64,000 nucleotides of DNA from Steroidobacteraceae bacterium (GCA_035996065.1 DASYJX010000037.1:31296-95295); one strand, 5' to 3'. Positions 3,805 to 49,661 are shown, counted from the first letter of the stretch. Notes: generated from the sequence alone by a model not told the origin. Translations and numbers: made by a program.

Positions 3805-3809
3805 GTGCT

Positions 3810-5183: not shown

Positions 5184-5271
5184 TACGCGACGGGGCCAGG
5201 GATGCGAAAAATAACATGGGCGAATCGCGAAATGGCATAGCGGGATGAGAACGAAAGACTAAGCTCGCTGC

Positions 5272-6876
5272 ATGGAATCCTTCGACTACATAATCATCGG
5301 CGCGGGCTCCGCGGGCTGCGTGCTGGCCGATCGACTATCGGCGAGCGGCCGCGATCGGATATTGGTTCTTGAGGCCGGCGGGACCGACCGACGATTTTGG
5401 ATCAAGACCCCCATCGGTTACGGACGAACATTTGCCGACGGCGCGGTCAATTGGAAGTATCAGACGCTGCCCAATCCGGGCCTCGACGGGCGCAGCATCT
5501 ATTGGCCCCGCGGCCGCGTGGTCGGCGGCTCGAGCTCCATCAACGCGCTCGTCTACTGCCGCGGGATACCCGCCGACTTCGATGACTGGCGGCAAATGGG
5601 CAATATCGGCTGGGGATGGGATGACGTGCGACCGTACTTCGAGCGCTCGGAGCGCCGGGTCGATGCGGCAGGCCGCGCCAGCGGCGATGGGCCCCTCGAC
5701 GTCAAGGACGTGACGCCTTTTCTGCACCCGATGCGCCGGAATTGGCTGGAAGCGGCCGCCGAATTAGCCCTGCCGGTAACGGACGACTTCAATGGCCCGC
5801 ACCCGGAAGGCCTGGGCTGCTACCAAGTGACGATTCGCAACGGCATTCGCCGTTCCGCTGCCGACGCCTTTTTAAGGCCGGCGCTGCGTCGCGGCAACAT
5901 TCGCCTCGAGACCGGCGCCTGGGTAAGTAAAATCCGCTTCGATCAGAGGCGAGCCGTCGGCGTGGATTATGTGCGAGGCGGTGCCGGAAAATTCGCTGCA
6001 GCCGAACGCGAAGTCATTCTATGCGGGGGGGCGGTCAATTCGCCGCAGTTGTTGCAGCTCTCGGGAATCGGTCCTGCGTCCACATTGGAGGCGTCCGGAA
6101 TCGCTACGCTGCTCGACAATCCTGCGGTCGGCGGAAATCTTCAGGATCATCTGGCCGTCGTATATTCATTCAAGGCCACGCAAGCGACGCTGAACGATGA
6201 ACTGCATTCCACAACCGGCCAAATGATCGCGGGCCTGCGCTATCTTCTGGCGCGGCGCGGGCCGTTGGCCCTGAGCGTGAATCAATTCGGCGGGTTCGCG
6301 CGCGCAAACCCCAACGGTACCCGCCCCGATGTGCAACTCTACTTCAATCCCGTGACGTATGGCGCAGGCGACGCGACCCGCACTCGGATCGAGGTGGATC
6401 CGTTTTCCGGATTTTATTTGTGCTTTCAGCCGACGCGGCCGACGAGCGTGGGGCGCATCGACATTGCAAGTCCCGACTTTCGCCGTCCGCCGAGCATCGC
6501 CCCCAACTATTTATCCACTGAAAAAGACATCGATGACGTCGCTCATGGCGGCCGATTGCTGCAGGCCATCGCCCGGACACGGGCGATCAAGGCATTGATA
6601 CGCGAGCCCATTGCGCCCGATCTCGATGCGATGGGACCTGACGGCTTGATTGCGGATTTTCGCGCGCGAGCATCCACGGTGTATCACCCCGTCAGTACCT
6701 GCCGCATGGGGGCGAGCGCCGCGGATTCCGTGGTCGATGCGTCTCTCAGGGTGCACGGCGTCGAGCGCTTGCGCGTCGTGGACGCTTCCGTGTTTCCAAC
6801 CGTCACGTCCGCAAACACCAACGCACCGACTATGATGGTGGCGCAAAAGGCCGCCGATTTAATTTTGCACGGATAA
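5272..6876 (+). CDS. GMC-family FAD oxidoreductase (choline/alcohol dehydrogenase-like)
   Basis: Contains MESFDYIIIGAGSAGCVLADRLS (ADP-binding fold), GGSSSINALVY, and C-terminal VYHPVSTCRMG (GMC signature). 534 aa. Confidence 0.9.
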   Translation: MESFDYIIIGAGSAGCVLADRLSASGRDRILVLEAGGTDRRFWIKTPIGYGRTFADGAVNWKYQTLPNPGLDGRSIYWPRGRVVGGSSSINALVYCRGIPADFDDWRQMGNIGWGWDDVRPYFERSERRVDAAGRASGDGPLDVKDVTPFLHPMRRNWLEAAAELALPVTDDFNGPHPEGLGCYQVTIRNGIRRSAADAFLRPALRRGNIRLETGAWVSKIRFDQRRAVGVDYVRGGAGKFAAAEREVILCGGAVNSPQLLQLSGIGPASTLEASGIATLLDNPAVGGNLQDHLAVVYSFKATQATLNDELHSTTGQMIAGLRYLLARRGPLALSVNQFGGFARANPNGTRPDVQLYFNPVTYGAGDATRTRIEVDPFSGFYLCFQPTRPTSVGRIDIASPDFRRPPSIAPNYLSTEKDIDDVAHGGRLLQAIARTRAIKALIREPIAPDLDAMGPDGLIADFRARASTVYHPVSTCRMGASAADSVVDASLRVHGVERLRVVDASVFPTVTSANTNAPTMMVAQKAADLILHG

Positions 6877-6898
6877 ATCCTACGGAGGGGAAAAGGAT

Positions 6899-8131
6899 AT
6901 GAAGCTCGACAGTGTCAATGTGTTTCTTGTGAGCAATCCGCCGCCGAGCTTCGGCGGCCGCTATTTCGTGTTTTTGAAATTGAGGACCGCGTGCGGAATC
7001 GAGGGGGTCGGCGAAGTGTATGCCGCCACATTCGGCCCGAAGGTTTTGGGGAAAATGATCGAAGACCTGTTTGCGCGGCGCTTTGCGGGGCGCGATCCTT
7101 TCCGGATCGAATCGCTCTGGCGCGAGAGCTATGGTTCGGGATTCAGCCAGCGTCCGGATCTCTCGCTGGTGAGCGTCATCAGCGGACTGGAAATGGCCTG
7201 CTGGGACATCATCGGCAAGGCCGTCGAGCAGCCGATTTATAACCTGATGGGCGGCAAGGTTAACGAGCGCCTGCGCAGCTACACGTATTTATATCCGGCC
7301 GCCGGCGAAGGCGACGACTTCTACAGCGATCCGGATCGATCGGCGGCGCGCGCCGCCGAGTACGTCGCACAAGGGTTCACGGGACTCAAATTCGACCCCA
7401 CCGGTGGCTTCTCGGCATACGATCCACGGCAACCCACCCAGGAAGCTCTCGAACGCACGGTGCGCTTGGTAAGACTGGTGCGCGAAGCCGTCGGACGCCG
7501 TGCGGACCTTTTGCTCGGCACCCATGGCCAATTCACGACTTCAGGCGCCATTCGATTGGGAAGGCAACTCGAGCAATATGATCCCCTCTGGTTCGAAGAG
7601 CCTGTGCCGCCCGAGATGCCGGAACAGATGGCGATCGTGGCGCGCGGTACCAGCATTCCCATCGCCACCGGCGAGCGCCTGACCACCAAGTACGAATTCG
7701 CGCGGGTCTTGGCGTGCGGCGCAGCGAATATCCTGCAAATGAACTTGGGGCGCGTCGGAGGGATGCTCGAAGCGAAGAAAGTCGCGGCCCTGGCGGAGGT
7801 CCATTATGCGCAAATCGCCCCGCATCTTTATTGCGGTCCGGTGGTCGGCGCCGCGAATATCCAGATCGCCACCTGCTCGCCCAATTTTCTGATTCTCGAA
7901 AGCATCCAGCAATGGGGTGGCATTCACGCGGAGCTTCTCAAGAAGCCGATTCGCTGGGAAGAAGGCTACGTCATTCCGCCCACGACGCCCGGCCTCGGGG
8001 TCGAACTCAACGAAGAGGTGGCGCGCACCCACGCATACGTCGAGGATAGCCCCCTGCATTTGGAGATGATCGACCGGCCGTTGGGAAATCCATCGGCTGC
8101 GATCAAACCCGAGGGCGCGATGCGCCTATGA
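6899..8131 (+). CDS. Enolase-superfamily enzyme (mandelate racemase/muconate lactonizing family, acid-sugar dehydratase-like)
   Basis: LWFEEPVPPE and PIATGERL metal-ligand motifs. 410 aa. The RBS GGAGGGG lies upstream of ATG 6899. Confidence 0.85.
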   Translation: MKLDSVNVFLVSNPPPSFGGRYFVFLKLRTACGIEGVGEVYAATFGPKVLGKMIEDLFARRFAGRDPFRIESLWRESYGSGFSQRPDLSLVSVISGLEMACWDIIGKAVEQPIYNLMGGKVNERLRSYTYLYPAAGEGDDFYSDPDRSAARAAEYVAQGFTGLKFDPTGGFSAYDPRQPTQEALERTVRLVRLVREAVGRRADLLLGTHGQFTTSGAIRLGRQLEQYDPLWFEEPVPPEMPEQMAIVARGTSIPIATGERLTTKYEFARVLACGAANILQMNLGRVGGMLEAKKVAALAEVHYAQIAPHLYCGPVVGAANIQIATCSPNFLILESIQQWGGIHAELLKKPIRWEEGYVIPPTTPGLGVELNEEVARTHAYVEDSPLHLEMIDRPLGNPSAAIKPEGAMRL

Positions 8132-9045
8132 ATTTGCGTTACGGCTTCATAGGACTTGGCAATCTTGGGCGGCATCTCGCCGTCAACTTGTGCCGCGGCG
8201 GCTTCGACGTCGGCGTGCACGACTTGCAGCGGAGCACCGCCGGCGGCGTGCTGATGGCGGGCGCGCACTGGGTGGATTCAATCGCAGATCTTGCCCGAGC
8301 CAGCGATTGCCTGATCACCTGCCTGCCTTCGCCTGCGGCCACGGCGGCGGTATTGGATCAAGCGCTGCCCAGCATGCGTGGCGGCGCCACGTGGATCGAA
8401 ATGAGCACCAATGATTTCGCCGAGGTCGAGGCCCTCGCCGCCCGAGCCGAAAGCCTCGGGATCAGCACTCTCGCCTGCCCGGTCACGGGCGGAGTGCATC
8501 GTGCGGAGGCCGGCGATATCACGGTGCTCGTCGGCGGTGCGCAATCGGTGTATGCAATGCACGAGGCGGCGCTGCAGGCCATGGGCGGGCGCGTCATCCA
8601 TTTGGGCGGGATCGAGCAGGCCGCGGTTACCAAGGTGGTGACCAATATGCTGGCGTTCATTCACCTGATTGCCGCCGGCGAAGCGCTCATGCTGTGCGCC
8701 AAAGGGGGCGTCGATCTGCGGGCCGCCTTCCACGCCATTGCCGCGAGCTCGGGCAATAGCTTCGTCCACGAGACCGAGAGCAAGGTGATCTTGAACGGCA
8801 GCTACGATATTGGATTTACGATGGATCTGGCATGCAAGGATGCCGGCTTCGCCGTCGAATTTGGGCGCCGCTTCGGAGTGCCCTTGCGCCTTGCCTCGCT
8901 GATGGAGCAAACCTTCATCGAGGGCCGCGCGAAGTATGGGGGAGATGCCTGGTCATCGATGATCGTGAAGCTGCTGGAAGATGCGGTCGGCACGCAGTTG
9001 CGTGCACCCGGTTTCCCGGCGCGCCTCAGCCCCAATGATGCCTGA
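8128..9045 (+). CDS. NAD(P)-dependent beta-hydroxyacid dehydrogenase (3-hydroxyisobutyrate dehydrogenase family)
   Basis: N-terminal YGFIGLGNLGRHLAVNL (GxGxxG). 305 aa. An ATGA overlap with the preceding gene indicates translational coupling. Confidence 0.85.
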   Translation: MNLRYGFIGLGNLGRHLAVNLCRGGFDVGVHDLQRSTAGGVLMAGAHWVDSIADLARASDCLITCLPSPAATAAVLDQALPSMRGGATWIEMSTNDFAEVEALAARAESLGISTLACPVTGGVHRAEAGDITVLVGGAQSVYAMHEAALQAMGGRVIHLGGIEQAAVTKVVTNMLAFIHLIAAGEALMLCAKGGVDLRAAFHAIAASSGNSFVHETESKVILNGSYDIGFTMDLACKDAGFAVEFGRRFGVPLRLASLMEQTFIEGRAKYGGDAWSSMIVKLLEDAVGTQLRAPGFPARLSPNDA

Positions 9046-9238
9046 AAGATGTCGCAAATTGGTAAGGAGGCATCGCTAAACGGCATAACGAGGACCCACT
9101 GATCGGCTAAGCTCAGGCCGAAGTACCAGAAGAGTGTGGATGTTTTTGCGATCGATCCGGCCGCAGGAGCGGGTCTCGGCGGGCGCGTTCGCCTGTGGTA
9201 CATGAAATTTCAGATAGCCAAAGTCAAGGGATGAAGGT

Positions 9239-11851
9239 ATGAACTGCAATTCGAAGCTGTCCTATGCGATTGCGGCGATTTTGAGCGGCGGAGCCTCCGG
9301 GTTCGTCCAGGCGGCGGCAGCGGCGGATACCGAGACAAGCGAGGGCATCCAAGAGATTACCGTCACGGCTCAGCGCCGCACGGAAAGTATTCAGAACGTG
9401 CCGATCACCATTACGGCACTCACCGGCGAGACGATCAAGGAATTGAACATCTCGACCTTGAACGACTATGTGAAGTTCCTGCCCAACGTCACGGTCGCGA
9501 ACCAAGGCCCGGGTCAAGGCCTCATTTATATGCGTGGCTTGGCGACGACCGAGGACGGCCCGCAATCCTCCGGCGCGACGGGAAGTTTTCCGAATGTCGC
9601 GGTCTACCTCGATGAACAATCCGCTCAGCTGCCGGGCCGCAATCTCGACGTCTACGCAGCCGATATCGAGCGTATCGAAGTACTCGAAGGCCCGCAGGGC
9701 ACCCTGTTCGGCGCCGGCGCCCAAGCCGGTGTGATTCGCTACATCACCAACAAGCCCAAGCTCGACAAGACCGAAGCGATAGTCAACGCCGGTTACGGCT
9801 ACACCTCGCATGGTGACCCGAGCACCAGCCTCGACGCGACGCTCAATCTACCCTTGATCGACAATACGCTGGCGGTCCGTGCGGTCATCTACAACGAGCG
9901 GCGCGGCGGCTACATCGACAACGTGCCCGGAACCTTCACTCGCAAGGACAGCGATATCGGCATCGGTGCTTACTTCGGCGGCCACGTGCCCGCGATCAAC
10001 GAGGTGGCGAACAACAATTCGGTGACCGGCAGGGCCATCAACCCCGTGACGTACCAGGGGTTTCGGTTGTCGGGCCTGTACCAGATCAACGATGACTGGA
10101 ACGTCCTTGTATCGCAGTCGTACCAGTTCATGGAAGCAGACGGCATCTTTGCCGAGATGCAGCACGGCACCGACGGCCAGAAGCTGCCTGATCTCTCGGT
10201 GAATTTGTTCACGCCGCAGTATGACAAGGACCGCTTCGAGAACACCGCGTGGACCGTGAGCGGCCGGATCGCCGCGCTCAAGGCCGTGTACACGGGAGGT
10301 TATCTGGTGCGCACGGTGGACCAGGTCGCCGATTACACAAACTACAACCGCGGCGCCTATGGCGACTACTATTCCTGCATCCTCCCGGGAACGCCGCAAG
10401 CAATTGCGAACGGGACGCCGGGAGGCGCCTGCCTCTCGCCGATCGCGACGTTCCGAGTGCAGCAACGCAACACCCATCAGAATCACGAGTTTCGCTTGAG
10501 CACGCCGGACGACTGGCGTTGGCGCGCCATCGGCGGTCTGTTCTACGAAGATTTTCTGGTTCAGGATATTTCCGACTGGCACTACCGGGCACCGGGCGCG
10601 GGCTTCATACCATTGATCGCGCCCCCCGCATCGAGTGCGAATAACCACGCGGTGCGCGACAACTCCATCGGCTTCTACGACGACATCCAGCGCGGCTACA
10701 AACAGAAGGCGGCATTCTTTTCCACGGACTTCGAAATCATTCCGAAGACCTTGACCGTGACCGCCGGCACGCGCTACTACAACATGGACACTTTCGAGAA
10801 GGGCGCGAAAGGCGGCAGCTACGACTGCCGGCCGGGCGGCTTATATCCGTTTGTCGGCCCGGACCAGATTTTGAACGGCGCCTGCAACAACGGCCTCAAT
10901 CTGGACACGTTCGCCGTCCCGGCCGGAAATGGAGCGTATTCGGACAAAAAAATCGGTCTGGAAAAAACCTACAAAGGCTTCAAGAGCCGCGCCAACATCA
11001 GCTGGAAGTTCATGGACGACGGCTTGCTGTACTACACGTGGTCGCAAGGCTTTCGTCCGGGTGGTTTCAACCGCTCATCGGGATTCGTGAGCGCCACGCA
11101 GTCACCGCTGGTCAACGTGTATCAAACTCCGATCGGTTTCGCGCCGGACGTCTTGACCAACAACGAGCTGGGTTTCAAGACCCAGTGGCTTAACCACCGG
11201 CTGCAATTCAACGGCACGGTATATCGGGAAGACTGGAAAAACGTTCAGATCGGGCTGTTCGATCCCGGGGTGCTGGGCAATTTGACATTCACGACCAACG
11301 GGCCGGACTACCGGGTCCGGGGCTTTGAGACGGAAATCATCGCGCAGCCGCTCGCCGGGCTGACGGTCACGGTGGCAGGATCGTGGAACCACTCCGAACT
11401 GGTCAATACCCCGACCCTGTTCGACAAGAACGGCGCTCCCATCAATTGGACAGCGCTCGGTCTGCACAACCCATATGGCGACACGGGTAGTCCTCTCGCG
11501 CAGTCGCCGCCATTCCAGGGAAATGTGCGCGTCCGCTACGAAGTTCCGATGGGAAGCTACAACACATTCGTGCAAGGGGCGGCTACGCGCCGCGCGCACT
11601 CGCTCGCCACGACGGACAAGCTTGCGACGGAAAACGACAAGATAACGCCCGTCGATTACGTCCTGCCGGCATTCACGACCTACGATCTTTCGGTGGGAAT
11701 CGCCAAGGATCAGTGGACGGCGCAGATCTACGGCACCAACATTACCGACACGCGAGGCGTGGACTTCTCTACCTATGCGCAAAAGGTCAAGGAGGATACG
11801 GTCATTCGGCCGCGCACGGTGATGCTGAAAATCGGGTACAAGTTCCAATAG
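9239..11851 (+). CDS. TonB-dependent receptor (copy 1 of the duplicated module)
   Basis: Signal peptide MNCNSKLSYAIAAILSGGASGFVQAAAA. Plug motifs are present (IQEITVTAQRR, ERIEVLEGPQGTLFGAGAQAG). 870 aa, with a beta-barrel C-terminus ending ...LKIGYKFQ. Confidence 0.93.
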   Translation: MNCNSKLSYAIAAILSGGASGFVQAAAAADTETSEGIQEITVTAQRRTESIQNVPITITALTGETIKELNISTLNDYVKFLPNVTVANQGPGQGLIYMRGLATTEDGPQSSGATGSFPNVAVYLDEQSAQLPGRNLDVYAADIERIEVLEGPQGTLFGAGAQAGVIRYITNKPKLDKTEAIVNAGYGYTSHGDPSTSLDATLNLPLIDNTLAVRAVIYNERRGGYIDNVPGTFTRKDSDIGIGAYFGGHVPAINEVANNNSVTGRAINPVTYQGFRLSGLYQINDDWNVLVSQSYQFMEADGIFAEMQHGTDGQKLPDLSVNLFTPQYDKDRFENTAWTVSGRIAALKAVYTGGYLVRTVDQVADYTNYNRGAYGDYYSCILPGTPQAIANGTPGGACLSPIATFRVQQRNTHQNHEFRLSTPDDWRWRAIGGLFYEDFLVQDISDWHYRAPGAGFIPLIAPPASSANNHAVRDNSIGFYDDIQRGYKQKAAFFSTDFEIIPKTLTVTAGTRYYNMDTFEKGAKGGSYDCRPGGLYPFVGPDQILNGACNNGLNLDTFAVPAGNGAYSDKKIGLEKTYKGFKSRANISWKFMDDGLLYYTWSQGFRPGGFNRSSGFVSATQSPLVNVYQTPIGFAPDVLTNNELGFKTQWLNHRLQFNGTVYREDWKNVQIGLFDPGVLGNLTFTTNGPDYRVRGFETEIIAQPLAGLTVTVAGSWNHSELVNTPTLFDKNGAPINWTALGLHNPYGDTGSPLAQSPPFQGNVRVRYEVPMGSYNTFVQGAATRRAHSLATTDKLATENDKITPVDYVLPAFTTYDLSVGIAKDQWTAQIYGTNITDTRGVDFSTYAQKVKEDTVIRPRTVMLKIGYKFQ

Positions 11852-11869
11852 AGGAAGAATCGGCTTCGT

Positions 11870-13873
11870 ATGGCCGCCCCGCTCCCCGATTCTCTTCCGT
11901 CCGGTGTCGAGGCGGAAATTGGCCACGCCCGATCGCTGCTGCAGAAACGTCAGTTTCCACAGTCGCTCGCGGTCGCGGAAATTCTGCTTGCCGATTTTCC
12001 CGAAAACCGCGACGTCCTCTATCTGATCGCCGTCAATCAGCGCTACCTGGGACGCATCTCCGAAGCGCTCGCTACGCTTGAGCGGCTCGAGGGTCTGCAT
12101 CCCGATTATGGCCGCCTGTTCCAGGAGCGTGGCCACTGCCACCGCACCATAGGCGACGCGCCGGCGGCAATCGTGGCCTACCAGACCGCTGTCGACCGCA
12201 ATGCTGCGCTGCCGGCGAGTTGGAAGGCGCTCGCCGCTTTATTGAGGTCGGCGGGCCGCACCGCTGAGGCCGACAACGCCGTCAGCGTAGCGGCAAGTCT
12301 CGAGCAGCTGCCGCCTGCGATCGTCGCTGCAAACAGCTTGTTTGCGGAAGGCGATACCCATGCGGCCGAAAAGATGGTCCGGCAGTACCTGCAGCAAGAC
12401 CCAGCACACGTCGAGGGCATGCGACTGCTCGCCAGAATCGGCATGAAGCTCGGCGTCCTGGACGATGCCGAGTTCTTGCTGGAGAGCGTCTTGGAGTTCG
12501 CACCGGACTATCACGCCGCGCGGTATGACTATGCCCAGGTGCTCGCCGACCGCCAGAAGCACGCGCGCGCGCTGGAGCTGGTCCGGCAGCTTCTGGCGAT
12601 CGAGCCCCGTAACCCGATGTTTCGCTCGCTCGAGGGAAACGTCTTGGTGGGCCTCGGCGACCATGAAGCGGCGCTCAAGCTGTTCCACGAACTCCGTGAT
12701 GATTCGCCCGCGAATCCCACGTTGCACCTCGCGATTGCGCACGCCCACAAAACCGTCGGCCGCCAGCAGGAAGCCATTGAATCCTATCGCCGCGCTGCGC
12801 AAGTCCGGCCGGACTTCGGCGACGCATACTGGAGCCTCGCAAATCTCAAGACGTACCGCTTCACCGAGAACGAAATCGCGCAAATGCGCGCCCAGGAATC
12901 CGCGCATGGCACCCCCCTCCTCGACCGTTACCACCTTTGCTTCGCCCTGGGCAAGGCGCTCGAGGATCGAGCGGAATATGCGGAATCGTTTCTCTTTTAC
13001 GAACGAGGCAATGCGCTGAAACGAGATGAACTGCGCTACGACGCGGCTGCGCTCGAACGCAATCTGCGGCGGCAGTCCACCGTCTGCACGGGCGAATTTT
13101 TTGCGGCGCGCCGGGGGTTTGGATCGGGCGATCGGTCGCCCATTTTCATCATAGGCTTGCCGCGTGCCGGCTCGACGCTGGTCGAGCAGATCCTTGCCTC
13201 GCATTCGAACGTGGAGGGCACCAAGGAACTCGCCGACATTCCGCGGCTCGTCCACCGGCTGAATGGCCGCGAATCGAACGATTCGACGCCGCGATATCCC
13301 GCCGTGCTCGGCGAGCTTAGCGCCGAACAATTGCGGCAGTTCGGCGAGCAATTCGTTTTGGATACCCGAGTGTACCGACGGGGCAAACCCTTTTTCATAG
13401 ACAAGATGCCGAACAACTTTCGCCACCTCGGCTTGATCCACTTGATTCTGCCCAATGCCAAGATCATCGATGCGAGGCGCGAGCCCATGGCTTGCTGTTT
13501 CAGTAATTTCAAGCAACTTTTCGCGAGCGGCCAAGAGTTCACTTATGGCCTGGAAGACATCGCACGTTACTACCGCAATTACCTCGAATTGATGGAACAC
13601 TGGAACGCGGTACTGCCGGGCAAGATACTCAAGGTGCAGCACGAAGACCTGGTCCAGAACCTGGAAGGGAATGTCCGCCGCCTTCTGGATTTCTGCGAGC
13701 TCGAGTTCGAATCGACGTGCGTTGAGTTCTATAAGACCGAGCGGAGTATACGCACCGCGAGTTCGGAGCAGGTTCGTAGGCCTATATTCAAGGAAGGATT
13801 GGATCAGTGGCGGAATTTTGAGCCCTGGCTCGCGCCCCTCCAAGCCGCACTTCGAGGCCCGCCGACAATATGA
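11870..13873 (+). CDS. TPR-repeat + sulfotransferase-domain protein, leaderless (copy 1)
   Basis: 667 aa. The N-terminal half consists of helical TPR-like repeats. The C-terminal half carries IFIIGLPRAGSTLVEQILASH (5'-PSB PAPS loop) and FIDKMPNNFRHLGLIHLILPNAKIIDARR...CCFSNFKQ (3'-PB region). There is no signal peptide. RBS AGGAAG is present. The gene starts 18 nt after the receptor stop. Confidence 0.88.
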   Translation: MAAPLPDSLPSGVEAEIGHARSLLQKRQFPQSLAVAEILLADFPENRDVLYLIAVNQRYLGRISEALATLERLEGLHPDYGRLFQERGHCHRTIGDAPAAIVAYQTAVDRNAALPASWKALAALLRSAGRTAEADNAVSVAASLEQLPPAIVAANSLFAEGDTHAAEKMVRQYLQQDPAHVEGMRLLARIGMKLGVLDDAEFLLESVLEFAPDYHAARYDYAQVLADRQKHARALELVRQLLAIEPRNPMFRSLEGNVLVGLGDHEAALKLFHELRDDSPANPTLHLAIAHAHKTVGRQQEAIESYRRAAQVRPDFGDAYWSLANLKTYRFTENEIAQMRAQESAHGTPLLDRYHLCFALGKALEDRAEYAESFLFYERGNALKRDELRYDAAALERNLRRQSTVCTGEFFAARRGFGSGDRSPIFIIGLPRAGSTLVEQILASHSNVEGTKELADIPRLVHRLNGRESNDSTPRYPAVLGELSAEQLRQFGEQFVLDTRVYRRGKPFFIDKMPNNFRHLGLIHLILPNAKIIDARREPMACCFSNFKQLFASGQEFTYGLEDIARYYRNYLELMEHWNAVLPGKILKVQHEDLVQNLEGNVRRLLDFCELEFESTCVEFYKTERSIRTASSEQVRRPIFKEGLDQWRNFEPWLAPLQAALRGPPTI

Positions 13874-14130
13874 CAGCCCCCGTTGTTGGTACGCAACAAC
13901 GAGTGCGGCGCGCTACCGATCAGATTCTTCTGCTCAACCACTTTCTGCGGCCGGCTCTGATTCACGGGTTGACGGTGGCCGCCCGCGATTTATCTGACTG
14001 CGCAAGGACTCGAGGATGCTGACGCTGCGAAGCTGTGCTACCTCGTTTCCGCTCGTGCCGCCTTCTCGCTGTCGGGGCCGCCGCGCGGGGAGTAAGCAAA
14101 GATCGGGCGTGTGACTTGCGATGCAACACG

Positions 14131-14173
14131 TCATATATATTATATATGTACTTGTTTAGTTTGACTAATTTCC
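14131..14173. promoter_or_regulatory. AT-rich island (TCATATATATTATATATGTACTTGTTTAGTTTGACTAATTTCC) inside a 643-bp non-coding gap; possible promoter/UP or regulator-binding region for the second receptor module
   Basis: Read directly. It contrasts strongly with the surrounding high-GC sequence and contains a TTGACT hexamer. No convincing -10 partner was identified. Confidence 0.3.
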
Positions 14174-14345
14174 CAGCGAAGGACCCGGCCGAAACCCTCC
14201 TTGAGCGGCTGCGCCACTTGTCCGCAGCAACTCCCGCGCTCAACATTTACGACCACTCTCATGGAGCAGCGGGTGCGGCAACCCTAGGTCATGCTCCGTC
14301 GCCTGGCAACGCTCACGCCGCTGCCGCCTTGAGTCCTCACGGCAA

Positions 14346-14366
14346 GCATCGAATGCCGCATCGAAT
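14346..14366. repeat. Direct repeat GCATCGAAT-GCC-GCATCGAAT (12-bp period)
   Basis: Read directly. Two perfect 9-mers lie at 14346-14354 and 14358-14366, about 150 nt upstream of ATG 14517. Confidence 0.5.
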
Positions 14367-14516
14367 TTCCGTATGGCCGAATCTAAAATCGGCATGCGGG
14401 CGATGCATGGCCACAACAAAATAGACCTTTCGCTTTGCGCCGGCGATGCTATTCTCTGAAGTAATTACAAAGCCTGATGGCGTATTGCCGGGATTTTATA
14501 AGGAAGGGATGGAAGC

Positions 14517-17159
14517 ATGAATTCAAATCAGAAGTTGTCCTATGCGATTGCAGCCATCCTGAGCGGCTCGGCCGCGGGATTCGCCCATGCGGCCACGGCG
14601 ACCGACACTGAGGCCTCCGATTCGATTCAAGAGATCACCGTCACGGCGCAGCGCCGGACGGAAAACGTTCAGAACGTGCCCATCACCATCCAGGCGTTGA
14701 CCTCCGAGACCCTGAACCAGCTCAGCGTCACCACATTCGATGACTTCGTTCGCTATCTGCCCAATGTCACGGCGCCGTCGAACGGGCCCGGACAGGGCAA
14801 CGTATTCATGCGCGGCCTCAGTACCGGTGCGGCGGGCACCCAATCGAGCGGTTCGATCGGCGGCTTTCCGAATGTCGCCATCTACCTGGACGATCAATCC
14901 GGCCAACTGCCCTCGCGCAACCTCGACATTTATGCCGCCGACCTCGAGCGCATCGAAGTCCTCGAAGGGCCCCAAGGCACCTTGTTCGGCGCGGGCGCTC
15001 AAGCAGGCGTGATCCGCTACATCACGAACAAGCCCAAGCTCAATGTGACCGAAGCCAATTTCGACGTCGGCTACGGCGTCACCGCGCACGGCGATCCCAA
15101 CACCGACCTGACTGCGGTCCTCAATCTGCCGCTGATCAACGACACTCTCGCGCTGCGCGCCGTCATCTACAACGATCGGCGCGGCGGCTACATCGATAAC
15201 GTGCCGGGCACCTTTACTCGCAAGGCTACCGACCTTGGCATTTACTATGCCAATAACCCCGGCGGAGGCGTTCCGGCCAATGCCCCGGCCATCAACAACA
15301 ACGCCATCGCCGCTCGCGCCATCAATCCGGTCACCTATCAGGGCACGCGCCTGGAAGGGCTGTATCAGATCAACGATAATTGGAACGTGCTGATTACACA
15401 GTCCTACCAGAACATCGACTCGCAGGGCGTTTTCTATCAGATGCCCCATGCCTCGGACGGCGCGGCCCTCAATCCGCTCGAAGTTACGCTGTTCAACAAT
15501 GCCTTTAACAAGGATCGGTTCGAGAATACGGCGTGGACCGTAAACGGCCAGCTCGGTGTTTTGCATGCGGTATATACCGGTGCTTATCTCGACCGTCACG
15601 TATCACAGGTCGGGGACTACACGAACTATGCCCGCGGCGTGTTTGCCGACTACTATCAGTGCTACGGTCCCGGCACCGGCTTTTATCTTGCGACTCCGAC
15701 CCCGGGCCTCACTTCGAGGTGTTACTCGCCCAGCAGCACCTGGCGCGAAACCGAACGCAACGAGCATCTCAGCAATGAATTTCGCTTGAGCACGCCGGAT
15801 GATTGGCGCGTGCGCGTCATCGCCGGCGGTTTCTTTGAGACCAATACTCTCTTCGACCAGACCGACTGGCTTTACAAGACGATCCCGAACTGCACCTCGA
15901 ACACCGCGCCGGGCACTCCGGGCAACACGGGTTGCATGTCGAACGTCGGCACGGTGCCCGGCACCACCGTCGAGAACCCCGGAGCTCAGAACGACAACGT
16001 CGCGTTCTTCGAGGACACCACGCGTCAAGTCAAACAGGCAGCGGGGTTCACATCGATCGACTTCGACCTTATTCCCAAAGTGTTGACCATCACGGGAGGC
16101 ACGCGTTACTACAATTTCGATGAGTACTTCAAGGGCAGTGTCAGCAGCAGTTTCGGCTGTTTCGAGGCCGGAGCGCCTCCCGGCGGCTGCATCGCGGGCG
16201 GCAACAACCTGGACAAGAGAAACCTCACTTCCAAGGAACACGGCTTCAAGAGCCGCGGCAATATCACTTGGCACATCACATCGGACATCATGGTGTATGC
16301 GACGTATTCCCAAGGCTTCCGTCCCGGCGGCTTCAATCGCGTGAACAACTGTCACATCCGAGGGACGGATGGGCTCAATCAATTCTGCATACCGCAGACG
16401 TATAAGTCCGACGACTTGACGAACAAGGAAATCGGCTGGAAGACGGAGTTTCTGGATCACCGATTGCAATTCAACGGTGCTCTGTACCAGGAGAACTGGG
16501 ACAATGTGCAGGTCGGGTTCTTCGATCCCGGCGAAACGGGCAATCTGACCTTCGGAACCAACGGACAAAATTACCGGATTCGCGGTGTCGAGACCTCGAT
16601 CGTGGCACGCGTGACGCAGGGCCTGACGCTGCAGGGTGGCGCAGCCTGGAATTCGAGCACACAAACCAATTCGCCGGCTTTGATCGACACCAATCCGGCG
16701 AGCAACAACTTCGGCAAGCCCATCACCGTGGCGTGCGACAAAACCGGAGCGAACTGCAAACCGCTCAACAATCTATTCGGCCCGCCCGGCGGCCCGAGCG
16801 CAAACTCGCCGCCCATCGAGTTCAACTTCCGCGCGCGCTATGACTTCACGATGAATGGCTACACTCCATTTATGCAGGTGGGGGCGACACACACCGGGCA
16901 CTCCTTCACACAGGGCGGAAGCAATCCTTCGATCTCGGCCGGCGGCATCAATACCACCTTGCTGCGCTTCGAAAACCCCGCGTATACGACTTACGATGCC
17001 TCGGCGGGTGTGGCGAAGGACGCGTGGAACGCGCATGTGTTCGTGCAGAATCTGACCAACTCGAATGCCAGTCTCTTTACCAATACGGGACAATTCACGG
17101 TGGCGCAGACCGTCCTCCGTCCCCGGGTGATCGGCGTTAAGGTCGGCTATAAATTCTAA
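14517..17159 (+). CDS. TonB-dependent receptor (copy 2 of the duplicated module)
   Basis: 880 aa and collinear with 9239-11851 from the signal peptide (MNSNQKLSYAIAAILSGSAAGFAHA) through the plug (IQEITVTAQRRTENVQNVPITIQAL) to the terminal ...VKVGYKF. Confidence 0.93.
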   Translation: MNSNQKLSYAIAAILSGSAAGFAHAATATDTEASDSIQEITVTAQRRTENVQNVPITIQALTSETLNQLSVTTFDDFVRYLPNVTAPSNGPGQGNVFMRGLSTGAAGTQSSGSIGGFPNVAIYLDDQSGQLPSRNLDIYAADLERIEVLEGPQGTLFGAGAQAGVIRYITNKPKLNVTEANFDVGYGVTAHGDPNTDLTAVLNLPLINDTLALRAVIYNDRRGGYIDNVPGTFTRKATDLGIYYANNPGGGVPANAPAINNNAIAARAINPVTYQGTRLEGLYQINDNWNVLITQSYQNIDSQGVFYQMPHASDGAALNPLEVTLFNNAFNKDRFENTAWTVNGQLGVLHAVYTGAYLDRHVSQVGDYTNYARGVFADYYQCYGPGTGFYLATPTPGLTSRCYSPSSTWRETERNEHLSNEFRLSTPDDWRVRVIAGGFFETNTLFDQTDWLYKTIPNCTSNTAPGTPGNTGCMSNVGTVPGTTVENPGAQNDNVAFFEDTTRQVKQAAGFTSIDFDLIPKVLTITGGTRYYNFDEYFKGSVSSSFGCFEAGAPPGGCIAGGNNLDKRNLTSKEHGFKSRGNITWHITSDIMVYATYSQGFRPGGFNRVNNCHIRGTDGLNQFCIPQTYKSDDLTNKEIGWKTEFLDHRLQFNGALYQENWDNVQVGFFDPGETGNLTFGTNGQNYRIRGVETSIVARVTQGLTLQGGAAWNSSTQTNSPALIDTNPASNNFGKPITVACDKTGANCKPLNNLFGPPGGPSANSPPIEFNFRARYDFTMNGYTPFMQVGATHTGHSFTQGGSNPSISAGGINTTLLRFENPAYTTYDASAGVAKDAWNAHVFVQNLTNSNASLFTNTGQFTVAQTVLRPRVIGVKVGYKF

Positions 17160-17213
17160 AGGAGCTTTGACTGATCGCGGCTACCCGCTCGAGGGTCTGA
17201 CGCAGTAGTATCG

Positions 17214-17241
17214 AAGGCGGGCATGAGCCCGCCTTTTTTTT
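17214..17241 (+). terminator. Rho-independent terminator between receptor 2 and sulfotransferase 2
   Basis: AAGGCGGGC-ATGA-GCCCGCCTT: 7 G:C pairs plus 2 A:T pairs, a tetraloop, then a run of 8 T. It lies 54 nt after the TAA at 17157-17159. Confidence 0.8.
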
Positions 17242-17249
17242 GGGAATCA

Positions 17250-19256
17250 ATGCAAGCAGCCGCCGTCACAACCCCCCTTTCTCCCGTCGCGGCGGAGGTC
17301 CTGCGCATCCGCGTCCTCATCGAGCGCCAGCAATTCGCCGCCGCGCTCAAGGCGGGCGAAGCCTTGGCGGTCCAGGTTCCGGAAAACCGCGATGTCCTCT
17401 ACATGATTGCCGTCAGCCAGCGGTATTTGAAGCAAGAAGACCAGGCGCTGGCCACCCTGGAGCGGCTGCAGAGGCATCACCCCAACTTCAGTCTTCTGTT
17501 CCAGGAACGCGGCCACTGCTATGTCGCGCAGCGCGATGCGCCGCGCGCGATCGATGCGTTCTTGGGTGCCGTGAACATCAATCCGGCCTTGCCGGCGAGC
17601 TGGCGGACCCTGCAGACGCTCTTCCGGATGACCGGCCAGGCTGAGAATGCCGAGATGGCTGCCGCACATGTCGCAACTCTCGGGAAATTGCCCCCGGAGA
17701 TCGTCACAGCGACCGCCATGTTTTCCGACGGAGATCTGGCGCCCGCAGAAGAGCTCGTGCGGGCGTTTCTGTTGAAACACGGCGACCACGTCGAAGCCAT
17801 GCGGCTGCTGGCGCGGATCGGGCTTGCGCATGACGTGCTCGACGATGCCGATATCTTGCTGGAAGCCGTGCTGGCCATGGCTCCGGACTATCGAGCCGCC
17901 CGCTACGACTATGCCATCGCGCTGCTCCGGCGCCATAAGCATGAGCAGGCCATCGCCGAACTTGAGAAGCTGCTGCAGCTCGATCCGAAGAATCGGGCTT
18001 ACAAGACCACGTACGCGACAACGAAGGTGGGTCTGGGCGATCACGAGCGGGCGCTTGGGCTTTATCAGGAACTCATCGCCGACGCTCCGCAATCGCTTCA
18101 GGCATCCGAGCTGCATCTGTCGGTGGCGCACTCGTTCAAGGCGCTCGGACGCCAGCCGGAGGCGATCGAATCCTATCGCGCCGCCGCGGCGGCTCGGCCG
18201 AGTTTCGGGGATGCCTACTGGAGCCTCGCCAACCTCAAGACTTATCGGTTCACGGTGGACGAAATTTCACGCATGCGTGCCGAAGAGGCTGCCGAGACGA
18301 CCGCGCCGGTCGACCGCTACCACCTGTGCTTCGCTCTCGGCAAGGCGCTCGAGGACCTGGCCGAATACGAGGAGTCGTTTCGCTACTATGAACGCGGCAA
18401 TGCGCTCAAGAAGTCTCAGAGCCGCTATCGGCCGGAGCCGATCGAACGCAACACGCGGCTGCAGAAGGCGACCTGCACCGCGGAATTCTTCGCCGCCCGG
18501 CGCGGCGTGGGCTGCGACAAGCCCGACCCCATCTTCATTGTGGGCTTGCCGCGATCCGGCTCCACGCTGCTCGAGCAGATCCTGGCCTCACATTCGAAAG
18601 TCGAAGGCACGATGGAACTCGCGGACATTCCCCGCTTGGTGCTGGACCTGCAAGGGCGCGAGGCGGAGAGCGACAACCCGCGCTACCCGGCTGTGCTGCA
18701 CGATCTCGATCCCGCCGACTTCCTCAGGATGGGTAAGAAATTCATCACCGACACGCGCGTATACCGTACCGGCAGACCCTACTTCATCGACAAGATGCCG
18801 AACAACTTTCGGCATCTCGGTTTGATTCATCTGATTCTGCCGAATGCCAAGATCATCGATGCACGGCGCAACGCAATGGCGTGTTGTTTCAGCAATTTCA
18901 AGCAGCTCTTTGCCTCGGGACAGGAGTTTACCTATGGTCTCGAGGACATCGGCCGGTACTACCGGACGTACGTCGAGCTGATGGCGCATTGGGATATGGT
19001 CATGCCCGGCAAGATCTTGCGCGTCGAGCATGAGGATGTCGTCGATGATCTCGAAGCGAATGTCCGCAGGATCCTCGATTTCTGCGGCCTGGAATTCGAA
19101 CCTCAGTGCATCGAGTTCTACAAGACCGAGCGCAGCGTCAGAACCGCGAGCTCGGAGCAGGTACGTCAGCCGATTTTCAAGGAGGGCGTCGATCAGTGGC
19201 GGCATTTCCACCCCTGGCTAGGCCCTCTGGAGGCAGCGCTCGGTGCAGCGTCTTGA
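17250..19256 (+). CDS. TPR-repeat + sulfotransferase-domain protein, leaderless (copy 2)
   Basis: From ORF 17223-19256. The first ATG (17223) lies in the terminator loop, so I moved the start to the in-frame ATG at 17250. This gives 668 aa, against 667 and 666 aa for the paralogs. Motifs are IFIVGLPRSGSTLLEQILASH and the identical FIDKMPNNFRHLGLIHLILPNAKIIDARR block. Confidence 0.85.
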   Translation: MQAAAVTTPLSPVAAEVLRIRVLIERQQFAAALKAGEALAVQVPENRDVLYMIAVSQRYLKQEDQALATLERLQRHHPNFSLLFQERGHCYVAQRDAPRAIDAFLGAVNINPALPASWRTLQTLFRMTGQAENAEMAAAHVATLGKLPPEIVTATAMFSDGDLAPAEELVRAFLLKHGDHVEAMRLLARIGLAHDVLDDADILLEAVLAMAPDYRAARYDYAIALLRRHKHEQAIAELEKLLQLDPKNRAYKTTYATTKVGLGDHERALGLYQELIADAPQSLQASELHLSVAHSFKALGRQPEAIESYRAAAAARPSFGDAYWSLANLKTYRFTVDEISRMRAEEAAETTAPVDRYHLCFALGKALEDLAEYEESFRYYERGNALKKSQSRYRPEPIERNTRLQKATCTAEFFAARRGVGCDKPDPIFIVGLPRSGSTLLEQILASHSKVEGTMELADIPRLVLDLQGREAESDNPRYPAVLHDLDPADFLRMGKKFITDTRVYRTGRPYFIDKMPNNFRHLGLIHLILPNAKIIDARRNAMACCFSNFKQLFASGQEFTYGLEDIGRYYRTYVELMAHWDMVMPGKILRVEHEDVVDDLEANVRRILDFCGLEFEPQCIEFYKTERSVRTASSEQVRQPIFKEGVDQWRHFHPWLGPLEAALGAAS

Positions 19257-19282
19257 GTTCCCGGCGTCGAGGATATTCAGAT

Positions 19283-22646: not shown

Positions 22647-22662
22647 AAGTTCTAGTATAGTC

Positions 22663-22722
22663 CGACATCGCTGAGCCCGGATCGTGCGCGAACACGACAT
22701 CGCGATGATCCATCGCGACATC
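22663..22722. promoter_or_regulatory. Repeated CGACATC boxes plus the palindrome CATCGCGATG in the divergent MttB / GlxA-type regulator promoter region
   Basis: CGACATC occurs at 22663, 22695 and 22716. A perfect 10-bp palindrome lies at 22698-22707, and CATCGCGA recurs at 22711. All of these fall within the 105-bp divergent spacer 22647-22751. Confidence 0.4.
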
Positions 22723-23768: not shown

Positions 23769-23838
23769 CCATGCCTTCGATCGAATCCTCGGTTATCGTA
23801 TTGACCGGGAAACCTTCAGAGGAAACTGGGCCGCCATA

Positions 23839-26510: not shown

Positions 26511-26533
26511 ACTGAGGGCCTTAGAGCCAAACC

Positions 26534-27436: not shown

Positions 27437-27445
27437 GCCATCGCG

Positions 27446-37134: not shown

Positions 37135-37273
37135 GAGACAGTCCTGGTTTTCAAGAGTTCTTCCTACGATACCAATATTCGAGCGCAACCCGGTGCCCCG
37201 AAGCGACGTTTTCCAAGAAATATACGACGAAGCGATTTGCGCCGGCATTAGGATTGCGTAAACTCTCGCTGCC

Positions 37274-46261: not shown

Positions 46262-46390
46262 CGCATCGCCCCCTTGTACCACTCCCGATGGCACGCGGAC
46301 GCATGCCGGTTCGGATCATGTCTTGCGAAGGCGATGCCTGTCAATGACCAACGCCCCACACGCTGATCGATCGTTCAATAGGCGAACGGG

Positions 46391-49418: not shown

Positions 49419-49661
49419 GGTGCCTCCGCAGGACGAAGAGCGTGAAGGTCGGACGCGGCCATTATGCCACCGACGCACGTCTCTTGTCTGTTTCCGACAT
49501 TTTTTTGTCGTTTTCTAAATGGTAACGAGGCCTGTCCCAGCCCCTCGTCCGCGTATTTGGGGATTCCCTGGCGCATTTCAATCAGGGACTGTCGCAATTG
49601 GCGTCTTGTTTGGCGGCCCGCTGGTTACACTGCGTCACGCATTTGCGTTGGGAGATTGAAC

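Follow-up and report, generated by a model that had tools for sequence, protein, structure and literature searches.

In animals, the sulfation of protein tyrosines is among the major extracellular modifications; in bacteria it rests, to our knowledge, essentially on one system, RaxST. The partner genes of RaxST encode a small precursor peptide and a type I secretion system, and we know of no TPR domain in the enzyme. The autotransporter heptosyltransferases AAH and TibC are cytoplasmic enzymes that are encoded beside their outer-membrane-destined substrates and modify them prior to Sec export. Both lack TPRs and transfer glycosyl groups, to the passenger domains of autotransporters. RaxST itself is a cytoplasmic tyrosine sulfotransferase for which the secreted peptide RaxX and the outer-membrane protein Omp1X are reported as substrates (PMC4892823). 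FlmG binds its exported substrate in the cytoplasm through a TPR domain (PMC7591256).

Here we analysed a 64,000-nucleotide stretch of DNA from a Steroidobacteraceae bacterium (the window). It carries two diverged tandem copies of a module, at 9239-13873 and 14517-19256, in which the gene of a TonB-dependent receptor (TBDR) is followed by that of a leaderless TPR-sulfotransferase (ST). This duplicated two-gene module, claimed in a first-pass annotation, is present (Table 1). The conserved pair has never been characterised before: the literature searched held neither a functional assignment for it nor a report of sulfated TonB-dependent receptors. Our best explanation, which we offer tentatively and rate below even, is that the ST acts in the cytoplasm as a protein sulfotransferase, guided by its TPRs, and modifies the adjoining exported protein before export.

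Table 1. Features of the window, in order of position.
Feature	Coordinates	Strand	Remarks
LysR-family regulator	2836..4071	-	HTH_1 + LysR_substrate (Pfam); beside TBDR-ST pairs in 18 related loci
MFS inner-membrane transporter	3810..5183	-	D-galactonate-transporter-like (MFS_1; NCBIfam TIGR00893-like)
GMC oxidoreductase	5272..6876	+	choline-dehydrogenase-like, below equivalog cutoff; conserved in 25 loci
Acid-sugar-dehydratase-like enzyme	6899..8131	+	enolase superfamily; conserved in 25 loci
Beta-hydroxyacid dehydrogenase	8128..9045	+	HIBADH / L-threonate-dehydrogenase-like; conserved in 15 loci
RBS-like AAGGGATGAAGG	9227..9238	+	ahead of TBDR1; similarity to module 2 starts at 9226
TBDR1	9239..11851	+	870 aa; TonB-dependent receptor with Sec signal peptide, plug and 22-strand barrel (Pfam, predicted model)
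TBDR1 subfamily signature loop	10331..10441	+	residues 365-401, D-Y-x-N-Y...Y-Y-x-C...C-x-x-P; alignment of 60 ST-linked TBDRs
ST1	11870..13873	+	667 aa; leaderless TPR-sulfotransferase
5'-phosphosulfate-binding loop GLPRAGSTL of ST1	13154..13180	+	G429-L437; Arg432 aligns to TPST loop arginine
Promoter-like hexamers	14116..14147	+	overlapping AT-rich palindrome CATATATATTATATATG (14131-14147); upstream of TBDR2
TBDR2	14517..17159	+	880 aa; TBDR1 paralogue
Intrinsic-terminator hairpin GAAGGCGGGC-ATGA-GCCCGCCTTT + T-run	17213..17244	+	between TBDR2 and ST2
ST2	17250..19256	+	ST1 paralogue
S9 prolyl-oligopeptidase-family peptidase	39316..41325	-	last gene of ST3 operon
TBDR4	41342..43777	-	56% identical to TBDR3
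TBDR3	43787..46294	-	directly downstream of ST3
ST3	46391..48391	-	TPR-sulfotransferase, 39% identical to ST1; GTG start at 48391
GbdR-like regulator	48405..49478	-	GlxA/AraC, DJ-1 domain; immediately upstream of ST3

The receptors of both modules contain Plug and TonB_dep_Rec_b-barrel domains (Pfam) and bear all hallmarks of TonB-dependent receptors: a signal peptide, a plug, a barrel of 22 strands after the plug and a C-terminal aromatic residue (...GYKFQ in TBDR1, ...GYKF in TBDR2). The strand count derives from a low-confidence TBDR1 model (four-sequence alignment, pLDDT 40) that served for strand periodicity only. TBDR1 and TBDR2 share about 51-54% identity (51% full-length). ST1 and ST2 are 63% identical, with 53% in the TPR part and 74% in the catalytic part, and both peptide strings quoted earlier as common to the copies are the same in the protein comparison. 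At the nucleotide level a similarity of ~70% begins 13 nt 5' of each TBDR start codon (9226/14504), in line with the claim that it runs from the ribosome binding site onward, and it picks up again over the ST genes (68%). This module-wide similarity of nucleotides and proteins bears out a diverged segmental duplication. The duplication is ancient and not recent, since other genomes hold TBDR2/ST2 orthologous pairs (75-80% identity) and one TBDR1/ST1 pair (70-72%). An ORF in the gap between the modules (14035-14424) was rejected as a gene, having no Pfam match and not being kept in tandem modules elsewhere. Searching 8900-19500 with Rfam gave no riboswitch or known RNA, and NCBIfam held no specific model for the ST or for the TBDR1-type receptor subfamily. 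The TPR-sulfotransferase family carries a generic name only.

A third ST with two TBDRs, overlooked in the first-pass annotation, lies on the minus strand at 41342-48391. The type of GbdR-like regulator found ahead of it is also located upstream of TBDR-ST pairs in 5 other loci.

For ST2 the mechanical ORF start is 17223. The earlier start at 17250 is the credible one, because the ATG at 17223 sits in the loop of a strong hairpin (17213-17236) that is followed by T8. Intrinsic terminators between receptor and ST were found elsewhere in 39 of 71 gaps (~55%, compared to 0.1 in shuffles), counted over the surveyed TBDR-ST pairs whose genes lie 30 nt or more apart; within the window, module 2 has such a terminator and module 1 has none. 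A terminator at this position would be consistent with an enzyme of low abundance that serves an abundant structural product.

ST1 and ST2 match multiple TPR families as well as Sulfotransfer_3 (Pfam; E 4e-49 and 1e-50). Together with ST3 they reach 168-174 bits against the Sulfotransfer_3 model (PF13469), the cutoff of which is 27. The best sequence matches among solved structures are protein-tyrosine sulfotransferases (8w5z, 5e-12; TPST1, 8e-10; TPST2, 1e-6), which are the only ones that match ST1 strongly, the CurM sulfotransferase being weaker; this closeness to TPSTs may partly reflect sampling, as the PDB contains few bacterial sulfotransferases. In a 26-sequence alignment with ST3 (39% identity to ST1) among its members, the 3'-phosphate-binding pair consists of an invariant R537 and an S545 that is conserved in at least 90%. 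E453, K512 and S631 are invariant in the ST family and align to the catalytic Glu base, Lys and Ser of the TPSTs (HMMER, 8w5z and TPST1). Arg432, Glu453, Lys512, Arg537/Ser545 and Ser631, which we take to be the equivalents of TPST2 R78, E99, K158, R183/S191 and S285, are all invariant or nearly so across the family. As to R101 and R105 of TPST2, presumably the arginines that bind the substrate peptide after the catalytic Glu, an R105 equivalent (IPRL) exists in ST1 and ST2 and not in ST3, and the R101 equivalent is Ala. Degeneracy of the PAPS-binding residues, raised as an objection at first pass, is thus not seen on a proper alignment, where PAPS-binding and catalytic residues are invariant, and by this measure the PAPS-binding and catalytic machinery is intact.

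A faint match to NoeE over the PAPS loop would fit another possible role of the ST, that of an enzyme which, like NoeE and other rhizobial carbohydrate sulfotransferases, acts on an LPS, capsule or lipid precursor on the cytoplasmic side; outer-membrane protein genes would be neighbours only through shared envelope biogenesis. Bacterial members of the Asp/Asn beta-hydroxylase family include lipid hydroxylases such as LpxO, and an Asticcacaulis TPR-ST is clustered with a homologue of this family and a second sulfotransferase family; relatives in Komagataeibacter and Lelliottia have glycosyltransferase neighbours. We nevertheless consider sulfation of an envelope glycan or lipid very improbable: the modules and most of the 160 surveyed loci are devoid of glycan or lipid biosynthesis genes, and the TPR arm together with the TPST-like catalytic residues points to a polypeptide acceptor.

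The TPR superhelix of ST1 spans residues ~12-410 and the catalytic domain ~416-662. Structure prediction for ST1 gave an AF2 model (pLDDT 85.7, pTM 0.81) in which ~19 TPR-type helices (residues 12 to 413) run straight into a Rossmann-like alpha/beta catalytic domain. SPINDLY and OGT are the nearest folds (Foldseek), in a search with the full model that TPR proteins dominate and that is therefore uninformative on the catalytic domain. At ~400 residues the arm makes up ~60% of the ST; its architecture is conserved, and its sequence is the less conserved half.

How far the gene pairing extends was surveyed for 92 full-length STs from 80 other genomes. A co-directional TBDR is located immediately upstream of 62 of them (median gap 82 nt) and immediately downstream of 9. 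Adjacency is therefore not confined to the source genome, and is strongly conserved across Gamma- and Alphaproteobacteria. Over 83 pairs, the identity matrices of TBDR and ST correlate with r = 0.88 (permutation maximum 0.19), a co-divergence that also follows from mere co-inheritance. The receptor is tracked slightly better by the TPR part (0.876) than by the catalytic part (0.761). Taken from the receptor side, only 36 of 77 evaluable TBDR1-like receptors (48-92% identity, metagenomes) have an adjacent ST, and the receptor subfamily thus needs no cis-encoded ST. The ST family is very large, with 11,480 clusters at 50% identity (E 1e-30 or better), and species-representative genomes contain more than 588 stretches that match it. 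Distant full-length relatives (23-31% identity) have other exported or surface proteins as their neighbours. In Lelliottia, Pacificitalea, Thalassospira and Azospirillum these are autotransporters; Comamonas and Sulfitobacter have substrates and machinery of type I secretion, Paroceanicella has flagellin, and Pseudoalteromonas once more has TBDRs. Members of the ST1 clade that lack a TBDR lie next to Tat-signal phospholipase C genes. What these neighbourhoods have in common is an exported protein; they share no metabolite pathway.

The enzyme features listed above would equally suit a protein or peptide substrate other than the neighbouring receptor, that is, a secreted peptide or protein encoded in trans, or imported peptides. 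The receptor would then be tied to the ST only by uptake or co-regulation, e.g. by re-import of the sulfated product. That about half of the related receptors have no ST in cis agrees with such a scheme, as does the precedent of RaxST, which acts on a small secreted peptide, and the S9 peptidase that ends the ST3 operon hints at peptide traffic. However, within 700 nt of TBDR-ST pairs there is no conserved small ORF of the kind of a RaxX-like precursor, and the receptor-ST gaps are too short to hide a precursor gene. The modules contain no ABC, type I secretion or peptide exporter genes. The locus thus departs from RaxX-like or RiPP sulfated-peptide systems, with no adjacent precursor gene and no dedicated peptide exporter. 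Moreover, receptor and TPR arm would not be expected to co-diverge so tightly 1:1 if the receptor were irrelevant to recognition. We regard a substrate of this kind as unlikely.

If the neighbouring receptor is the acceptor, its surface loops are the places to consider. The signature loop of the TBDR1 subfamily is predicted, from strand periodicity in the low-confidence model, to be long and of extracellular type, and its residues Tyr366, Tyr369, Tyr378, Cys380 and Cys398 are conserved in 100% of the 60 ST-linked TBDRs. As a mark of ST-linked receptors the DYxNY...YYxC...C loop was rejected, being present in 29 of 44 ST-less relatives. No alignment column, whether tyrosine, acidic or other, cleanly splits ST-linked from ST-less receptors, and the residue differences between the two groups look like clade signal. 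A search of the ST-adjacent phospholipases C for motifs of the receptor loop revealed none that is shared.

Module 1 is embedded in a wider locus. Together with 2836-9045 it has the composition of a TonB-dependent nutrient utilisation locus, i.e. receptor, transporter, catabolic enzymes and regulator. Neither two-gene module contains an inner-membrane transporter, as had been stated, yet the MFS gene at 3810-5183 belongs to this conserved wider locus; it is present in 21 related loci, where it often directly adjoins the TBDR-ST pair. The LysR ORF as listed overlaps the MFS gene, and its true start is probably near 3770. In Steroidobacteraceae the beta-hydroxyacid dehydrogenase gene lies immediately upstream of the TBDR; Sphingomonadales have the same cassette gene set in another gene order.

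This setting raises the possibility that receptor and MFS transporter bring in a nutrient or xenobiotic and that the ST sulfates the small molecule in the cytoplasm. Conceivable products are choline-O-sulfate, a sulfated sugar acid and a detoxified phenolic, and the TPR arm would serve oligomerisation or scaffolding. Consistent with this are the conserved cassette of LysR regulator, MFS transporter, GMC oxidoreductase, acid-sugar dehydratase, beta-hydroxyacid dehydrogenase and aldehyde dehydrogenase in both taxa, and the recurrence of GbdR-like regulators, choline-dehydrogenase-like and aldehyde-dehydrogenase genes and PlcH-type phospholipases near the pair. The window also encodes a choline sulfatase of BetC type and has many genes for the catabolism of betaine, dimethylglycine and sarcosine, and Sulfotransfer_3 also takes in enzymes with non-protein acceptors. 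Nonetheless, the cassette is found in only ~1/3 of the loci while the TBDR-ST core persists, and the autotransporter, type I secretion substrate and flagellin neighbours of full-length relatives are left unexplained. Spending PAPS on a compound that is soon catabolised has no obvious logic, and an arm of such size and conserved architecture, which follows the divergence of the receptor slightly more closely than the catalytic half, is difficult to accommodate. We think sulfation of an imported compound unlikely.

The first-pass annotation had left the choice between an import-then-sulfate system and receptor-linked sulfation of a protein or peptide. The latter is better supported, since the domain is closest to TPSTs, the TPR arm is divergent and varies together with the receptor, and relatives sit beside exported proteins; the former is weaker and still live, given the conserved uptake cassette with its MFS transporter. 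For sulfation of the exported neighbour we infer the following course. Each ST would be a cytoplasmic, PAPS-dependent sulfotransferase of TPST/RaxST type with its N-terminal TPR superhelix as substrate-recruiting arm, as in OGT or FlmG. It would be transcribed from the promoter of the receptor and, in over half of the pairs with a real gap, be reached only via terminator read-through, such that less ST than receptor would be made. The arm would capture the still-unfolded precursor of the adjoining exported protein, here the TonB-dependent receptor, and the catalytic domain would O-sulfate at least one residue, most likely tyrosines in loops that end up at the cell surface. Sec export and outer-membrane assembly would follow, and the fixed negative charges gained in this way would adjust how the receptor captures its ligand.

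A protein acceptor is favoured by the precedent of RaxST as a bacterial cytoplasmic tyrosine sulfotransferase; against it, the frequent position of the pair within an uptake and catabolic cassette would suit an enzyme acting on an imported compound equally. Against the receptor as acceptor speak the 41 of 77 related receptors without adjacent ST, the loop motif in ST-less receptors and the lack of an ST-specific column. Taken more broadly, it is possible, though in our view doubtful, that bacteria O-sulfate their own TonB-dependent receptors before export, and perhaps autotransporters, type I adhesins, flagellin and phospholipase C too. The enzymes, a very large and uncharacterised TPR-guided TPST-like family in which each member would evolve together with the gene of its substrate, would then stand for a widespread, unnoticed surface modification in Gram-negatives.

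If neighbouring receptors and adhesins are modified, the sulfation of surface proteins would be a common but so far overlooked part of the biology of the Gram-negative envelope, with a bearing on nutrient capture by soil and aquatic oligotrophs, on receptor recognition by phages and bacteriocins, and on host interaction. If imported compounds are the acceptors, the STs would constitute a step new to TonB-dependent utilisation loci. In either case the two-gene unit provides a testable handle in cultured carriers, among them Novosphingobium, Pseudoalteromonas, Asticcacaulis, Rhodanobacter and Glaciecola.

Compared to known systems, the ST appears to resemble RaxST of the RaxST/RaxX/RaxABC system (Xanthomonas oryzae) as a cytoplasmic, PAPS-dependent, TPST-like enzyme of a Gram-negative with a product destined for export. 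It differs in its TPR arm and in its partner, which is a TonB-dependent receptor instead of a conserved precursor peptide. With human TPST1 and TPST2 and the tick TPST (8w5z) the ST shares the 5'-PSB and 3'-PB motifs and the aligned Glu, Lys and Ser. The TPSTs, however, are Golgi-lumenal type II membrane proteins without TPRs, and their identity to the ST is low and limited to the catalytic domain. OGT, SPINDLY and the Caulobacter flagellin glycosyltransferase FlmG have the same layout of an N-terminal TPR superhelix fused to a C-terminal transferase, but transfer glycosyl groups (GT41 or GT-B fold), whereas the ST would transfer a sulfuryl group. Finally, TonB-dependent nutrient utilisation loci, such as the Xanthomonas CUT loci, likewise bring together receptor, MFS transporter, catabolic enzymes and regulator in an arrangement that is syntenic across taxa. 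We know of no sulfotransferase in such loci, whereas here no other gene is as tightly linked to the receptor as the ST.

The four open reading frames of the two tandem modules, each module comprising a TonB-dependent receptor (TBDR) and a leaderless TPR-sulfotransferase (ST), were recovered at the positions that the first-pass annotation had assigned to them. Pfam detected plug and barrel domains in TBDR1 and TBDR2, and many TPR families together with Sulfotransfer_3 (E-values of 4e-49 and 1e-50) in ST1 and ST2. The receptors share 51% and the sulfotransferases 63% identity, and both peptide strings previously quoted as common to the two STs are the same in each. ST1 matches an NCBI protein of the Steroidobacteraceae metagenome-assembled genome from which the window derives at 100% identity. 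The proposed similarity from ribosome binding site to C-terminus was borne out at the DNA level: it amounts to ~70% from 13 nt 5' of each TBDR start codon, such that the RBS-like strings are included, and to 68% across the ST genes. In other genomes TBDR2-like/ST2-like pairs show 75-80% identity and a TBDR1-like/ST1-like pair 70-72%. These cross-genome values (70-80%) exceed the 54-63% between the two module copies in the window; the duplication is old. In the 644-nt gap 5' of TBDR2, promoter-like hexamers of both strands are overlapped by a perfect AT-rich palindrome, CATATATATTATATATG (14131-14147), a possible operator; Rfam gave no match for the region around it. Directly 3' of ST2 lies an ORF resembling a beta-lactamase-fold serine hydrolase (19106-21097). 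Since its listed GTG start runs into the end of ST2 and its Pfam match is limited to residues 319-551, the true start is probably later.

Coordinates of the receptor, sulfotransferase and accompanying features in the window
Feature	Position	Strand	Remarks
LysR	2836-4071		with MFS, divergently oriented
MFS	3810-5183		with LysR, divergently oriented
GMC oxidoreductase	5272-6876
Acid-sugar-dehydratase-like enolase-superfamily enzyme	6899-8131
Beta-hydroxyacid dehydrogenase	8128-9045
TBDR1	9239-11851		870 aa
ST1	11870-13873		667 aa
TBDR2	14517-17159		880 aa
Predicted intrinsic-terminator hairpin	17213-17244		between TBDR2 and ST2; 10 bp, GC-rich, then eight T
ST2	17250-19256		credible start 17250; mechanical ORF start 17223
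Second GbdR-like regulator	22752-23768
Aromatic-amino-acid-lyase-like protein	23470-25650
Periplasmic binding protein	25416-26510
Fatty-acid-desaturase-like protein	26534-27436
MFS transporter (choline-O-sulfate-type cluster)	27446-28747
BetC-type choline sulfatase	28744-30279
S9 prolyl-oligopeptidase-family peptidase	39316-41325	minus	last in third module's order
TBDR4	41342-43777	minus	56% identity to TBDR3
TBDR3	43787-46294	minus
ST3	46391-48391	minus	GTG start; 39% identity to ST1
GbdR-like regulator	48405-49478	minus	first in third module's order
Fifth receptor	60051-63155		unrelated (17-21% identity); without ST

A third ST module, absent from the earlier annotation, occupies the minus strand (39316-49478) with internal gaps of 9-96 nt. 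Here the ST lies ahead of its receptors and not second as in modules 1 and 2. Five other loci carry a GbdR-like regulator 5' of the TBDR-ST pair, as is found 5' of ST3.

The pairing extends well beyond the source genome. When one genome per species was scanned, at least 588 relatives were recovered, and the neighbourhoods of the best 80 loci, with 92 full-length STs, were surveyed. These loci belong to Gammaproteobacteria (Steroidobacteraceae, Rhodanobacter, Dyella, Glaciecola, Cellvibrionaceae, Arenicella, Pseudomonadales) and Alphaproteobacteria (Sphingomonadales, Rhizomicrobium, a Rhodobacterales bin). A co-directional TBDR stands immediately upstream of 62 of the 92 STs, and for 9 a TBDR lies immediately downstream; several further STs stand within TBDR-ST'-ST or TBDR-ST-ST chains, and about a dozen have no neighbouring TBDR. 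The median gap from TBDR to ST is 82 nt. On annotated replicons of cultured strains the order is TBDR>ST>TBDR in Novosphingobium pentaromativorans and TBDR>ST-family-2>Asp/Asn beta-hydroxylase>TPR-ST in Asticcacaulis. Three Pseudoalteromonas strains have TBDR>ST, with STs that are no more than 23-28% identical to ST1. The Asticcacaulis locus (L081, Asticcacaulis sp. DW145 plasmid, 4774-12642) holds one further sulfotransferase after the TPR-sulfotransferase, and gives the impression of several modifying enzymes clustered behind a single TonB receptor. At eight surveyed loci (L009, L017, L019, L027, L028, L037, L058, L073) the main ST has another TPR-sulfotransferase paralogue directly before or after it. 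This second copy is far more divergent (profile score ~300-370 versus ~1000 for the ST) and gives TBDR-ST-ST' or TBDR-ST'-ST chains; the 64-kb window contains none. No mention of the TBDR-ST pairing was found in the literature searched.

Receptor and ST co-diverge. Their pairwise identity matrices correlate with r = 0.88 over 83 pairs (permutation maximum 0.19), and for 72 of the 83 the nearest receptor's partner ranks within the three nearest STs. The correlation with the receptor is slightly higher for the TPR half (0.876) than for the catalytic half (0.761).

The two halves of the enzyme point to different relatives. In sequence comparisons with the PDB the TPR half matches the TPRs of OGT, and strong matches of the catalytic half are only to protein-tyrosine sulfotransferases (8w5z, 5e-12; TPST1, 8e-10; TPST2, 1e-6); the CurM sulfotransferase scores 4e-5. 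In the alignment GLPRAGSTL coincides with the 5'-PSB loop of TPST, and Glu453 with the second glutamate of the TPST motif CGEET. Lys512, part of FIDKMPNNF, pairs with the NKDP lysine, Arg537/Ser545 with the Arg and Ser of the 3'-PB motif, and Ser631 with the serine of ERSTDQV. We take the corresponding TPST2 positions to be R78 (loop Arg), E99 (catalytic base), K158, R183/S191 and S285; in the TPST1 paper no residue labels corresponding to this numbering turned up. Across a 26-sequence alignment including ST3 the PAPS-site and catalytic residues show complete or at least 90% conservation, so the PAPS site is not degenerate. ST1 lacks a signal peptide, as had been proposed. In its AF2 model (pLDDT 85.7, pTM 0.81) paired TPR-type helices occupy residues 12 to ~413 and lead straight into an alpha/beta catalytic domain, with SPINDLY and OGT as nearest folds. 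Conservation between paralogues is much higher in the catalytic than in the TPR half (ST1-ST2, 74% versus 53%; ST1-ST3, 56% versus 29%). A family search with residues 330-667 at an E-value of 1e-30 or better returned 11,480 clusters at 50% identity. Some members are of giant size and comprise 2-6 sulfotransferase domains; P0121, P0126, P0127 and P0158 from this search have 1,650-2,820 residues and 3-6 domain copies.

Between TBDR2 and ST2 we found what is, by sequence, a textbook intrinsic terminator. The ATG of the mechanically called ST2 ORF sits in its loop, and the downstream start chosen in the first-pass annotation is the credible one. Among 71 TBDR-ST pairs with gaps of at least 30 nt (loci L001-L166), 39 carry a strong hairpin and T-run between receptor stop and ST start, compared to a mean of 0.1 for shuffled gaps; the consensus is about AAGGCGGGC-loop-GCCCGCCTT plus T-run. 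Since such gaps often span just 55-100 nt, leaving little promoter room past the hairpin, the ST of those pairs is apparently expressed mainly via read-through from the receptor promoter. This suggests ST production by read-through in hairpin-bearing pairs, which would leave the ST sub-stoichiometric to the receptor. Module 2 has the hairpin, module 1 an 18-nt gap without one.

Module 1 closes a conserved cassette, which comprises the LysR and MFS genes, the GMC oxidoreductase, the dehydratase-like enzyme, the beta-hydroxyacid dehydrogenase and then TBDR1 and ST1. The gene set recurs in Steroidobacteraceae and, with an added aldehyde dehydrogenase and reordered, in Sphingomonadales (TBDR>ST>MFS>ALDH>dehydratase>GMC>LysR). 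Roughly one third of the surveyed loci have it, and the TBDR-ST core is kept without it. In the remainder of the window the genes form a quaternary-amine catabolic island. Four stretches (351-2876, 21111-22721, 31450-37275 and 49464-58999) are dense in such paralogues: dimethylglycine-dehydrogenase-like proteins, sarcosine-oxidase-alpha-like proteins, DAO-family oxidases and MttB-family methyltransferases are present in two copies each, together with one GbcA-like Rieske oxygenase. A choline-O-sulfate-type cluster lies at 22752-30279; with its BetC-type sulfatase, one 64-kb island holds a sulfatase and three sulfotransferases.

Nearly every ST of the ST1 clade has a receptor, whereas the receptor subfamily can do without a cis-encoded ST: among 77 evaluable TBDR1-like receptors from metagenomes (48-92% identity), 36 adjoin an ST and 41 lack one, and no alternative partner takes its place in these 41. 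The receptors carry the signature D365-Y-x-N-Y...Y-Y-x-C380...C398-x-x-P, in which three of the tyrosines and the two cysteines show 100% conservation in the subfamily alignment; strand periodicity of a poor TBDR1 model would place it in a long, extracellular-type loop. Receptors without ST share the motif, and no alignment column divides ST-linked from ST-less receptors beyond the clade signal. That the reciprocal test came out weak, and that no tyrosine proved specific to ST-linked receptors, argues against the receptor as obligatory substrate. That the substrate is instead another protein or peptide we consider unlikely.

The contexts of relatives away from receptors are the most informative evidence between the hypotheses. 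Four receptor-less ST1-clade STs (L033, L039, L040, L046) stand divergently beside PlcH-type phospholipase C genes with Tat signals. Among distant full-length relatives (~26-31% identity), those of Lelliottia, Pacificitalea, Thalassospira and Azospirillum adjoin autotransporters; relatives in Enterobacter sp. 638 and on a Kluyvera plasmid have match statistics near-identical to Lelliottia's. Others lie beside a giant cadherin-domain protein and its TolC/ABC/HlyD exporter (Comamonas), a type I secretion system and calcium-binding protein (Sulfitobacter), or flagellin within a flagellar cluster (Paroceanicella). An exported or surface protein gene is adjacent or at most two genes away in about 14 of the 20 annotated contexts inspected; 6 of the 20 have none nearby. 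What these contexts share is an exported protein and not a pathway for a metabolite. Sulfation of an imported small molecule by the ST, a rival reading, we consider unlikely. Sulfation of an envelope glycan or lipid we regard as improbable.

We tentatively favour the reading of the ST as a cytoplasmic, TPST-like enzyme that sulfates protein under the guidance of its TPRs, with the neighbouring exported protein, here the TBDR, as putative acceptor. The ST would sulfate the adjoining protein in the cytoplasm, and export of the modified protein would come afterwards. The system matters through its very large family, its tightly conserved gene pair and a directly testable hypothesis. Autotransporter heptosyltransferases provide a precedent for cytoplasmic modification before export. 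Modification in the cytoplasm before export also applies to RaxST, for which RaxX and, reportedly, Omp1X are substrates (PMC4892823), and to FlmG, in which flagellins are bound by the TPR domain (PMC7591256). The new element here would be the joining of bacterial protein sulfation with TPR-guided modification.
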